NCBI GenBank assembly: GCA_965247685.1
Contig: OZ252021.1
Location: forward strand, 270,001-302,000
DNA length: 32,000 nt
DNA from: Bdellovibrionales bacterium
Lineage (GTDB): Bacteria; Bdellovibrionota; Bdellovibrionia; Bdellovibrionales; UBA1609
Reading direction: 5' to 3'
Shown here: piece by piece, positions 4,140-5,687 of the stretch
Layout of the letters: every line of letters starts with the position of its first letter
How positions within the stretch are numbered: position 1 is the first letter of the stretch
The notes under the pieces: model-generated
What the model saw: only the letters and a program-made list of their open reading frames with translations
The model's database searches: none
Told to the model about the DNA's origin: nothing
Made by a program: the position numbers and the translations under genes

Positions 4140-5687
4140 CTATTGACGATCTAAAGACTTTAAAACAAAGAGAGCATCTGGGTAATTCATATTTGCTGCT
4201 CTTTTAAAGTAGGAAATTGCTTTTTCATAGTCTTGCTTAACCCCTTCTCCTCTAGAATACATCACTCCCAAATTAAAAAGAGCATCCGGGTCATTCATAT
4301 TTGCTGCTCTTTCATAATAGGAAAATGATTTTTTTAAATCTTGCTCAACTCCTTTCCCCATATAGTACATAGCGCCTAAAGTAAAAAGAGCCTCTAGGAT
4401 ATTCATATTTTCTACTCTTTCAAGGTAGGAAACCGCTTTTTCAAAATCTTGCTCAACCCCTTCTCCTTTAGAATACATCACTCCTAAATTAGAAAGAGCA
4501 ATTAGGTACCCCATATTTACTGCTCTTTCATAGTAGGAAATTGCTTTTTCAAAATCTTGCTCAACCCCTTTCCCCTCATGGTACATAACTCCTACAATAT
4601 AAAGGGCAGGTGGGTGATTCATATTTGCTGCTCTTTTAAAGTAGGAAATTGCTTTTTTAGGATCTTGCTCAACCCCTTGTCCTTCACGATACATCGATCC
4701 TAAATTAAAAAGAGCCCCTGAGAGATTCATCTTTGCCGCTCCTTCATAGTAGAAAATTGCTTTTTCATAGTCTTGCTTAACTCTTCTCCCCGTATGGTAC
4801 ATAACGCCTAAAGTAAAAAGAGCAGCTGAGTGATTCAATTCTGCTCCCTTGGACAAATAACGAACAAGATCATCTGTTGAAACAAGAAATCTCTCAAAGA
4901 CATCCATTGAAAAATGAAAAAATGTTCTATCTTTTTCTGGAATTAAATAATTAGAATCTAGTTGCTGAGTGATTAATTTTGTTACATTTTGAATCTCTTG
5001 ATCAATACATTTTCTTGGCTGATTTCCACACACTGCTCCTATATGATTATCTAAAAGTTCTTGCAAATAAGATGACCAAACACTCTGTCCAAAATTAGAA
5101 CTAGAAACAACGGCAGAAAATATGCCTAGAAGATTGCCTTTTGAATCGAGCAATGGGCCACCACTCATTCCTTCAAGACCTCCTATAAAAGGAAGTTTAA
5201 AAAATACTCCATAATAAATATTATCCCTTATTTCAACCTTGCCTACACTTCTTATAGTTACAGATTTTCTCATACCCCCTGGGTAACCAATTGCAAACAC
5301 TCCCTCATGAAATAAGCTTTTCTCCCTTTCTGATAAATAAATATCCGATTTTTGTTCGGTCTGCAAGATAGCTAGATCAGCGTAGGCGGAAACAGATACT
5401 AATTTTTTAACTTTTATAGAAGGTTTACCATCACGAACTAAAAAAATATCTTCTACATTTTCAAGCTCATCAATGACATGAAAAGCAGTCACGAACAGAT
5501 CAGGTGCTATAAAAAATCCAGTGCCAAGAACAACCTCAGTGCTATCCTTATTTTCATCAAACAGAACTACAATTTTATAAGTAGCTTGTTCAGCTTTTAA
5601 AACTCCTGCTGGAAGATTAGAGGCGTAGGAGTAAGCTCCTAATAGCAAATAGGTATAAACTATCAAATATAGTAAGAAGATTCTCAT
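4140..5687 (-). CDS. Secreted trypsin-like serine protease / Sel1-like repeat fusion protein, array paralog 4
   Basis: 515-aa ORF. Catalytic codons verified on the sequence: His70 = 5478-5480 (CAT), Asp104 = 5376-5378 (GAT), Ser175 = 5163-5165 (AGT). Six SLR cores. C-terminus ALFVLKSLDRQ. Confidence 0.92.
   Translation of the reverse strand: MRIFLLYLIVYTYLLLGAYSYASNLPAGVLKAEQATYKIVVLFDENKDSTEVVLGTGFFIAPDLFVTAFHVIDELENVEDIFLVRDGKPSIKVKKLVSVSAYADLAILQTEQKSDIYLSEREKSLFHEGVFAIGYPGGMRKSVTIRSVGKVEIRDNIYYGVFFKLPFIGGLEGMSGGPLLDSKGNLLGIFSAVVSSSNFGQSVWSSYLQELLDNHIGAVCGNQPRKCIDQEIQNVTKLITQQLDSNYLIPEKDRTFFHFSMDVFERFLVSTDDLVRYLSKGAELNHSAALFTLGVMYHTGRRVKQDYEKAIFYYEGAAKMNLSGALFNLGSMYREGQGVEQDPKKAISYFKRAANMNHPPALYIVGVMYHEGKGVEQDFEKAISYYERAVNMGYLIALSNLGVMYSKGEGVEQDFEKAVSYLERVENMNILEALFTLGAMYYMGKGVEQDLKKSFSYYERAANMNDPDALFNLGVMYSRGEGVKQDYEKAISYFKRAANMNYPDALFVLKSLDRQ

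Follow-up and report, generated by a model that had tools for sequence, protein, structure and literature searches.

A tandem family of at least nine homologous genes, all on the minus strand, occupies positions 1-14237 of a 32,000-nucleotide (nt) stretch of the genome of a Bdellovibrionales bacterium (contig OZ252021.1 of assembly GCA_965247685.1, positions 270,001 to 302,000 of the forward strand), referred to here as the window. The array makes up ~1.1% of the 1.28-Mb genome, and in every paralog the modules follow the same order: a signal peptide, a Trypsin_2 protease domain, a helical extension with a Cys pair, a linker and Sel1 repeats. It is probable that the array represents a panel of exported proteases which has been diversified by positive selection together with short-tract gene conversion. 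The array may extend past the left edge of the window, so nine is a minimum gene number. The genes, with protein lengths in amino acids (aa), are as follows:

1-1046, minus strand: paralog 1 (p1), truncated at the window edge, with its first 348 codons inside the window and its C-terminus outside; short LA hairpin type DDGYVNG
1260-2411, minus strand: paralog 2 (p2), 383 aa, about 3 Sel1 repeats
2461-3921, minus strand: paralog 3 (p3), 486 aa, about 6 Sel1 repeats
4140-5687, minus strand: paralog 4 (p4), 515 aa, 6.7 Sel1 repeats; the representative used in an initial annotation
5897-7924, minus strand: paralog 5 (p5), 675 aa, 11.4 Sel1 repeats; the clearest mosaic
8143-9687, minus strand: paralog 6 (p6), 514 aa
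9906-11453, minus strand: paralog 7 (p7), 515 aa
11672-12676, minus strand: paralog 8 (p8), 334 aa, only 1.7 Sel1 repeats
12957-14237, minus strand: paralog 9 (p9), 426 aa, the first gene of the array in the coding direction

The eight complete reading frames are all open, and p1 runs off the window. The initial annotation, made from the sequence alone, had proposed that all nine paralogs combine a constant catalytic core with four strongly variable segments. The alignment bore this out: the triad is invariant, and the scaffold blocks which had been quoted are present, the exceptions being KAEQATYQ in p2 and APYRFVT in p7 and p9. The four segments delimited in p4 map, as proposed, to aa 41-55, 72-84, 136-172 and 189-203. 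The features of p4 and of the spacer upstream of it are:

5688-5896, minus strand: spacer upstream of p4, an example of the repeated intergenic spacer
5622-5687, minus strand: signal peptide, aa 1-22, with MR, a hydrophobic core and SYA before the predicted cleavage site
5523-5567, minus strand: variable segment V1, the LA beta-hairpin, aa 41-55, of three length and sequence classes among the paralogs
5478-5480, minus strand: codon of the catalytic His70, motif VT[NA]FHVI, invariant in 34 sequences
5436-5474, minus strand: V2, the LB or 60-loop after the catalytic His, aa 72-84, without insertions or deletions (indels)
5376-5378, minus strand: codon of the catalytic Asp104, motif YADLAI, invariant
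5172-5282, minus strand: V3, comprising LD (aa 135-142), the L3 hairpin tip (aa 155-157) and the L1 pre-Ser loop (aa 164-172)
5163-5165, minus strand: codon of the catalytic Ser175, motif GMSG[GS]P, invariant
5079-5123, minus strand: V4, the L2 post-Ser loop, aa 189-203 (L2 itself aa 192-198, plus flanks), with indels
5007-5030, minus strand: the Cys220...Cys227 pair of the C-terminal extension, invariant across the family including distant relatives
4863-4913, minus strand: variable linker, aa 259-275, joining the protease module to the first Sel1 repeat
4143-4862, minus strand: Sel1 repeat region with a 108-nt period

Mean pairwise amino-acid identity among the nine paralogs is 49% in the four segments V1-V4, where 14 of 80 columns are invariant, compared to 87% and 98 of 155 columns for the remainder. 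Nonsynonymous changes are clustered, with an index of dispersion of 5.4 versus 1.5 when permuted and a lag-1 autocorrelation of 0.47, and none of 5000 permutations reached the observed values. Loops were assigned using the DSSP secondary-structure string of an AlphaFold model, the register of the GMSGGP motif (equivalent to chymotrypsin 193-198) and matches to the HtrA and MarP folds. By this assignment V1 is the beta1-beta2 hairpin (LA), V2 the 60-loop (LB), V3 comprises LD, L3 and L1, and V4 is L2. In the chymotrypsin fold, LA, LB and LD border the cleft. In the Spl protease fold, loops 1 and 2 together with a strand build the S1 pocket (PMC7926377). The predicted structure and the motif register place the variable segments in the loops predicted to frame a chymotrypsin-fold cleft, and the expectation that variable positions would cluster there, instead of being scattered over the fold, held in the secondary structure, the register, the fold matches and the contrast in selection between loops described below.

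L1 (aa 164-172), which is equivalent by register to about chymotrypsin 184-192, differs in all nine paralogs. The equivalents of chymotrypsin 189-192 read ENVE, GDIG, K-FR, GGLE, GYFE, GDIR, EDVS, G-FT and EDVG, which includes charge reversals, and the 192-equivalent position alternates among E, R, G, S and T. In V2, aa 73-80 of p4 have accumulated 16 nonsynonymous and no synonymous changes among the paralogs. The 99-loop region beside Asp104 is invariable. The sequence classes given in the initial annotation were recovered for V1 (DDGYVNGTG in p1 and p5, an LF[DG]ENKD type in p4 and p6 and an MF[DN]EN type in p2, p3, p7 and p8) and for the pre-Ser loop (AFFE[LF]GFVE[DN]V in p1, p7 and p9, AVSFK.P.IGDI in p2 and p6 and PFQIP in p5 and p8). 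Its two classes of post-Ser loop were also right, although the regular expressions quoted for them were off by 1-3 residues since the loop lengths differ. The same segments are variable in an independent three-copy array on a related metagenome contig.

The paralogs have 84-93% overall nucleotide identity in pairwise comparison, and recombination among them was significant by several measures. The pairwise homoplasy index (PHI) gave z = -9.7, a value not reached in any of 2000 permutations, and was still significant on scaffold sites alone (z = -5.5). The four-gamete test was failed by 58% of pairs of biallelic informative sites, with a minimum number of recombination events (Rmin) of 48. Three fragments were globally significant in a GENECONV-like permutation test (p2-p6 aa 216-288, p3-p5 aa 240-275 and p1-p5 aa 24-70), and several more were significant in pairwise comparison only, including p5-p8 aa 185-201 (pairwise p = 0.004). 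Exact shared tracts of 223, 178, 149, 135, 129 and 128 nt join different pairs of genes and cover protease, spacer and Sel1 parts; that of 223 nt is shared by p6 and p2 and spans aa 213-287. These results support the recombination between copies which had been proposed from inspection of the motifs.

The nearest neighbour of each paralog switches between segments. For p5 it is p1 in LA (0 differences), p8 in L2 (2 nt) and p3 in the linker (0 differences), and aa 231-273 of p5 also match p3 while its N-terminal part matches p1. The initial annotation had described p5 as a combination of V1 of p1, the pre-Ser loop of p8 and the linker of p3. The first and last of these stood, but the pre-Ser likeness of p5 and p8 consists of the five residues PFQIP only, and the solid p5-p8 tract lies after the Ser. 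Linker cassettes are identical at the nucleotide level in p3 and p5 and in p2 and p6, as had been stated, although the variable linker falls outside the four segments then delimited.

The ratio of nonsynonymous to synonymous change (dN/dS, or omega) was determined by counting methods, using pooled Nei-Gojobori estimates and a tree-free minimum-spanning count with transition weights of 1, 2 and 4 compared. To avoid circularity, the tests were repeated on the whole protease domain (aa 35-212) and on structure-defined loops, both of which were chosen without reference to variability. For the protease domain the pooled omega was 1.83 (bootstrap 95% confidence interval 1.31-2.74), with omega >1 in 36 of 36 pairs, and the minimum-spanning count gave 1.8-2.4 with p from 8e-4 to 5e-7 across transition weights 1-4. 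The proposed diversification with dN/dS above 1 is therefore significant, by counting methods, in a region delimited without regard to variability. In the minimum-spanning count the structure-defined cleft loops had omega of 2.4-3.3 versus 0.6-0.9 for non-cleft loops, the linker 2.4-3.1 and the signal peptide about 0.2. V4 (L2) reached 4.1-4.8, and the Sel1 units were near neutral (1.1-1.5, significant at transition weight 4 only). Pooled Nei-Gojobori dN/dS was about 3 in the variable segments taken together, with 2.7-5.2 in five of the six and 1.28 in V1; the scaffold had 0.50 and the signal peptide 0.13.

The same pattern is visible directly in the codon alignments, where mean pairwise differences at codon positions 1, 2 and 3 were 0.152, 0.101 and 0.098, third positions being the least variable. 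Compensated frameshifts were ruled out as a source of the amino-acid divergence, which consists of in-frame point changes at positions 1 and 2 with conserved third positions. Since dS is about 0.10 in variable and scaffold parts alike, with the exception of V1, the loops do not appear to be old segments which have escaped homogenisation, but to carry an excess of replacement. The highest dS, 0.34, was found in V1, suggesting that its cassette types are older. When the same code was applied to related three-copy arrays omega was 0.54-0.72 (contig L001) and 0.32-0.43 (contig L154), which argues that values >1 are no artefact of the method or of AT-rich sequence. Taken with the loop assignment, these results point to positive selection for amino-acid change that probably acts on the cleft loops and the linker.

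Relaxed constraint, in which redundant copies are decaying and the variable segments are simply their least constrained parts, would be expected to leave a different signature. The loops of any protein tolerate change, and p2 and p3 do show signs of 3' damage, as the p3 frame terminates within spacer sequence and the two genes lie only 49 nt apart. Relaxation however pushes omega towards 1 and not to 2.4-5, the non-cleft loops have omega of 0.6-0.9, all eight complete frames are open, and the triad, the oxyanion motif, the Cys pair and the signal peptide are either invariant or under purifying selection. We consider decay to be extremely improbable as the explanation.

Almost as improbable is a mosaic produced by misassembly, or variation introduced by a diversity-generating retroelement or a similar mutator. 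Tandem repeats that are 84-93% identical are hard to assemble, but misassembly makes no excess of first- and second-position changes and would not keep eight long frames open, and the contig is one 1.28-Mb piece. In favour of a mutator, the protease domain matches, at the domain level, defence proteins with a reverse transcriptase-protease fusion; the variation nevertheless includes indels and is spread over six segments. A diversity-generating retroelement was rejected as unlikely, as no reverse transcriptase was found in the 32-kb window and the variable sites are not adenine-specific (A 45%, C 53%, G 65%, T 37%). Anti-phage defence was likewise rejected: the PADLOC matches, to the reverse transcriptase-protease class XI and to Lamassu LmuA variants, span the protease domain only, and the genes have no partner and encode a signal peptide.

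Positive selection acting together with gene conversion on an exported protease panel is thus the preferred explanation, and three processes are proposed. Duplication and unequal exchange would alter the number of genes and the number of Sel1 repeats. Short-tract conversion, over tens to about 220 nt, would keep the spacer carrying the promoter and ribosome-binding site, the signal peptide and the catalytic scaffold near-identical, and would also move loop cassettes between copies so that each gene becomes a mosaic. Positive selection would act on LA, the 60-loop, LD, L3, L1, L2 and the linker. The outcome would be a set of nine enzymes built on a common scaffold, no two of which have the same combination of cleft loops. 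Judging from the divergence of these loops the paralogs probably differ in substrate specificity, and they may prefer different substrates or inhibitors, with Sel1 serving to tether or target them, and act on host, prey or competitor proteins.

Several observations count against this explanation or narrow it. PHI on third codon positions alone was not significant (z = -0.7, 42 informative sites), so part of the homoplasy could reflect parallel selection. The predicted placement of the variable residues at the cleft was derived from topology and motif register combined with what is generally known of the fold. Strands and helices gave omega of 1.7-2.2, and about half of the nonsynonymous changes are in strands flanking the loops, so the signal is broader than the loops themselves. 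Counting methods may inflate omega somewhat in an AT-rich genome. Lastly, the proteins are presumed to be exported beyond the periplasm, and a signal peptide by itself delivers a protein no further than the periplasm.

The concentration of selection on exposed loops framing the cleft would also be expected of an arms race over inhibitors or recognition, in which the loops change to evade host or prey inhibitors, antibodies or receptors and the substrates stay broadly unchanged. Position 192 in the chymotrypsin family affects inhibitor binding, and the equivalent position in the array switches among five residues. Spl proteases are reported to interact with the serpin alpha-1-antitrypsin (PMC11611844), which is also in line with escape. 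Canonical inhibitors bind in a substrate-like manner, and escape and altered specificity are therefore hard to separate and may both hold. The changes however reach residues deep in the L1/L2 pocket region and include indels that reshape the loops, so substrate preference would be expected to change as well, and we think escape with unchanged substrates unlikely.

The proteases could also have diverged in their regulation, with L3, LD, L1 and L2 forming an HtrA-like allosteric unit that is tuned to ligands on the Sel1 module instead of to the cleavage target. The closest folds are HtrA, DegS and MarP, and in HtrA1 a contact from L3 reaches LD, and LD in turn acts on the oxyanion loop (PMC5666011). 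The linker to Sel1 shows evidence of positive selection too, and the number of Sel1 repeats ranges from 1.7 to 11.4. Set against this, the proteins have no PDZ domain and there is no evidence of a trimer; L1 and L2, the most variable stretches, form the S1 pocket itself; LA and the 60-loop, which lie outside the HtrA L3-LD relay, vary as well; and the Sel1 units are not significantly above omega 1. Regulatory divergence was accordingly judged quite improbable.

The assignment of the proteins to a family was made from profile, fold and sequence searches. The Trypsin_2 model (PF13365) matched p4, p5 and p8 with 58.2, 49.9 and 54.6 bits against a curated cut-off of 27.6, and the Sel1 model (PF08238) matched them with 195, 358 and 46 bits against 30.7. 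H70, D104, G173, S175, G176 and P178 are invariant in 34 aligned sequences of family members and distant relatives and in all nine paralogs, and both the His-Asp-Ser order of the triad and the G-x-S-G-x-P motif of chymotrypsin-fold peptidases are present. The AlphaFold model of p4 aa 1-290 (predicted local distance difference test score 85, predicted template modelling score 0.83) has 12 strands in the order expected of a two-beta-barrel fold. Its best Foldseek matches were MarP Rv3671c, MucD, HtrA1 and DegS (E about 1e-12, probability 1.00, target template modelling scores up to 0.75), and the sequence searches agree in giving HtrA/MarP-type proteins as best matches. The array proteins are thus predicted to be HtrA/MarP-like chymotrypsin-fold serine proteases with an intact triad, and would be catalytically active.

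They did not qualify as members of the HtrA (Do), MarP or Spl families. No PDZ domain was matched, the C-terminus consists of Sel1 repeats, and the Do family model (NCBIfam TIGR02037) scored 45.8 bits, below its cut-off of 416.2. The MarP model (NF033740) scored 38.6 bits against 250, and a single N-terminal hydrophobic signal sequence is found instead of a membrane domain. Membership in the staphylococcal Spl, V8 and exfoliative-toxin group (S1B) was ruled out by marginal sequence similarity: SplE matched with E = 2e-4 and SplA, SplD and glutamyl endopeptidases with E of 0.01 or weaker, all weaker than the HtrA-type matches. The N-terminal signal sequence is of the Sec type and, as read from the paralogs, has the hydrophobic stretch MRIFLLYLIVYTYLLLGAYSYA followed by S, and a helix was predicted at aa 2-24 of p4 in the AlphaFold model. 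In relatives with as little as 36-43% identity the C220/C227 pair of the helical extension is still conserved without exception. The two residues probably form a disulfide bond, as would suit a protein outside the cytoplasm.

By analogy, the staphylococcal spl operon would be the closest functional counterpart of the array, while by sequence and fold the array is nearer to HtrA and MarP. Like spl (Staphylococcus aureus SplA-F, S1B), the array is made up of several chymotrypsin-fold serine protease genes in tandem whose products carry signal peptides for secretion, and the copy number of spl differs between strains. The six Spl proteases have complementary P1 specificities on a shared scaffold (PMC7926377). 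The array diverges in the loops that would form the S1 pocket, where differences in specificity would be expected. Spl proteins are however single-domain proteins without Sel1 repeats, which the array proteins carry, and spl is described as one operon, whereas the array genes each have their own conserved spacer and, in three cases, a terminator-like hairpin 3' of the stop. The sequence similarity of Spl to the array is marginal and below that of HtrA-type proteases. No report of dN/dS >1 or of cassette shuffling for spl was found in the literature searched.

HtrA, DegP, DegS and MarP (S1C-like) are the best fold and sequence matches; they share the motifs TN.HV, D[LI]A[LV][LI] and G.SGGP and the common loop set LA, LD, L1, L2 and L3. 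The array proteins differ from them in having neither a PDZ domain nor a membrane anchor, Sel1 sitting where HtrA has its PDZ. To our knowledge these families usually occur in one or a few conserved copies, in contrast to nine copies with omega >1 in the array. The domain order of the array is shared with trypsin-Sel1/TPR fusions such as Tryp-(Sel1)6 of Pelodictyon luteolum, an architecture catalogued in 2008 without a function (PMC2605481), and no function of such fusions was found in the literature searched. The subfamily with the Cys-pair extension found in the array is rare, with 12 representatives at E <= 1e-30 among 1.84 billion.

Two further groups of systems share aspects of the pattern. 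Animal protease clusters (snake-venom serine proteases, granzymes, mast-cell proteases and kallikreins) are tandem chymotrypsin-fold paralogs with conserved non-coding and signal regions, and have an excess of nonsynonymous change in the mature enzyme, especially in the specificity loops. They are eukaryotic, contain introns and lack a Sel1 module, whereas the array is bacterial and lies in a 1.28-Mb genome. In pilE/pilS, vlsE, msp2 and opa, short-tract conversion among paralogous cassettes gives mosaics on a constant framework, as in the array. These loci encode surface antigens and usually have one expression site with silent donor cassettes; in the array, every copy is a complete gene preceded by a start region of its own, and the product is an enzyme with varying active-site surroundings.

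Outside the protease module, the number of Sel1 repeats per protein ranges from 1.7 (p8) to 11.4 (p5), and the 108-nt-period tandem repeats of the Sel1 regions are present in 1.8-10.7 copies. On the plus strand at 6227-6640, opposite the Sel1 repeats of p5, lies a 137-aa open reading frame whose repetitive sequence follows the 108-nt period; it is therefore almost certainly not a gene. Three kinds of C-terminal ending were seen: ...FVLKSLDRQ in p4, p6 and p7, ...AHRG...SSCR.LM... in p5 and p9, and ...LKFLYRK in p8. The exact tracts of 129 nt and 149 nt show that the Sel1 repeats undergo conversion too, as do stretches that run past a stop codon into the adjoining spacer. Immediately ahead of the start codon, ~50 nt are nearly identical in all nine genes and include the motif AAAAAGGG, presumably the ribosome-binding site.

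The gap between p3 and p2 is only 49 nt (window 2412-2530 region), and the C-terminal tail of p3 (...IPVLEFIVTFIQ) is encoded by what is intergenic spacer elsewhere (TTCCAG.TTTAGAGTTCATTGTAA...). A deletion appears to have joined p3 at its 3' end to the spacer that precedes p2. Just 3' of the stops of p4, p6 and p7 there is a weak terminator-like hairpin, AGGGGTTTTACTCCT followed by TTTAATT, at 4102-4116, 8105-8119 and 9868-9882 (minus strand). This placement suggests separate transcription units, with the total of such sites being no higher than the chance expectation.

The contig carrying the array is a single piece of 1,280,446 bp, and the G+C content of the window is 33-39%. MnmA is 85-87% identical in the two closest genomes and 62-63% identical in Bdellovibrionales metagenome genomes, and the gene order of the two closest genomes is the same as that of the window from 14.9 to 32 kb. 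The array is directly adjoined by a gene for a DNA methyltransferase (N6/N4, PF01555, CcrM-like, TTG start; 14896-15732, plus strand), which is in the same place in the two closest relatives, and no restriction enzyme was seen beside it. No protease was found next to this methyltransferase in the two closest genomes within the approximately 750 nt visible beyond it. In L070, a close relative, a different gene on the other strand follows the methyltransferase, and there is no protease remnant in the visible stretch.

Tandem arrays of two or three copies were found in three more distant, related metagenome contigs. In L154 (2474-3109 and 7368-7979) the three-copy protease-Sel1 array immediately follows a Gp49-family gene and has an ankyrin-repeat protein nearby; it adjoins an IscS-MnmA-MtaB block, a position which differs from that in the window. 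For the array proteins of the window, homology searching outside their own genome returned nothing closer than 43% identity. The word-indexed search returned p2, p3, p8 and p9 and missed p4-p7 although p4 and p6 are in the collections, so the lack of a match in that search is weak evidence of absence. Scans of species-representative genomes and of Joint Genome Institute (JGI) metagenomes gave nothing closer than about 41% local identity, and mostly below 36%. An exhaustive profile search gave 12 representatives at E <= 1e-30 among 1.84 billion, as well as a broader set of trypsin-Sel1/TPR fusions, and Trypsin_2 was accompanied by Sel1 or TPR in seven of ten profile matches scanned. One protein of the representative library, P0156 (1289 aa), matches the protease profile in six separate stretches and had no Pfam match at E <= 1e-5; it could represent several proteases in one polyprotein, or an array that has become fused.

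A more far-reaching proposal is that the conversion-driven shuffling of active-site loop cassettes among expressed paralogs is itself the adaptive mechanism, so that the array would serve as a bacterial 'specificity library'. This is tentative and we regard it as somewhat doubtful. If true, a reduced-genome bacterium associated with a host or prey would keep making new specificities or inhibitor-escape variants on one scaffold. The array would then parallel antigenic-variation loci at the level of enzymes, and the Sel1 module and linker would co-diversify to provide targeting.

A dN/dS >1 over a whole domain seems uncommon in a bacterial enzyme family. Combined with a conserved core, mosaic cassettes and the sizeable fraction that the array takes up of a very small genome, it suggests that these proteases are at the front line of an interaction with another organism. 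The array may be viewed as a natural experiment in how loop exchange re-tunes chymotrypsin-fold specificity, and offers nine ready variants for profiling and engineering. It also provides a handle on an uncultured lineage near the Bdellovibrionales metagenome genomes, and may give an early functional lead on the widespread and uncharacterised trypsin-Sel1 architecture.

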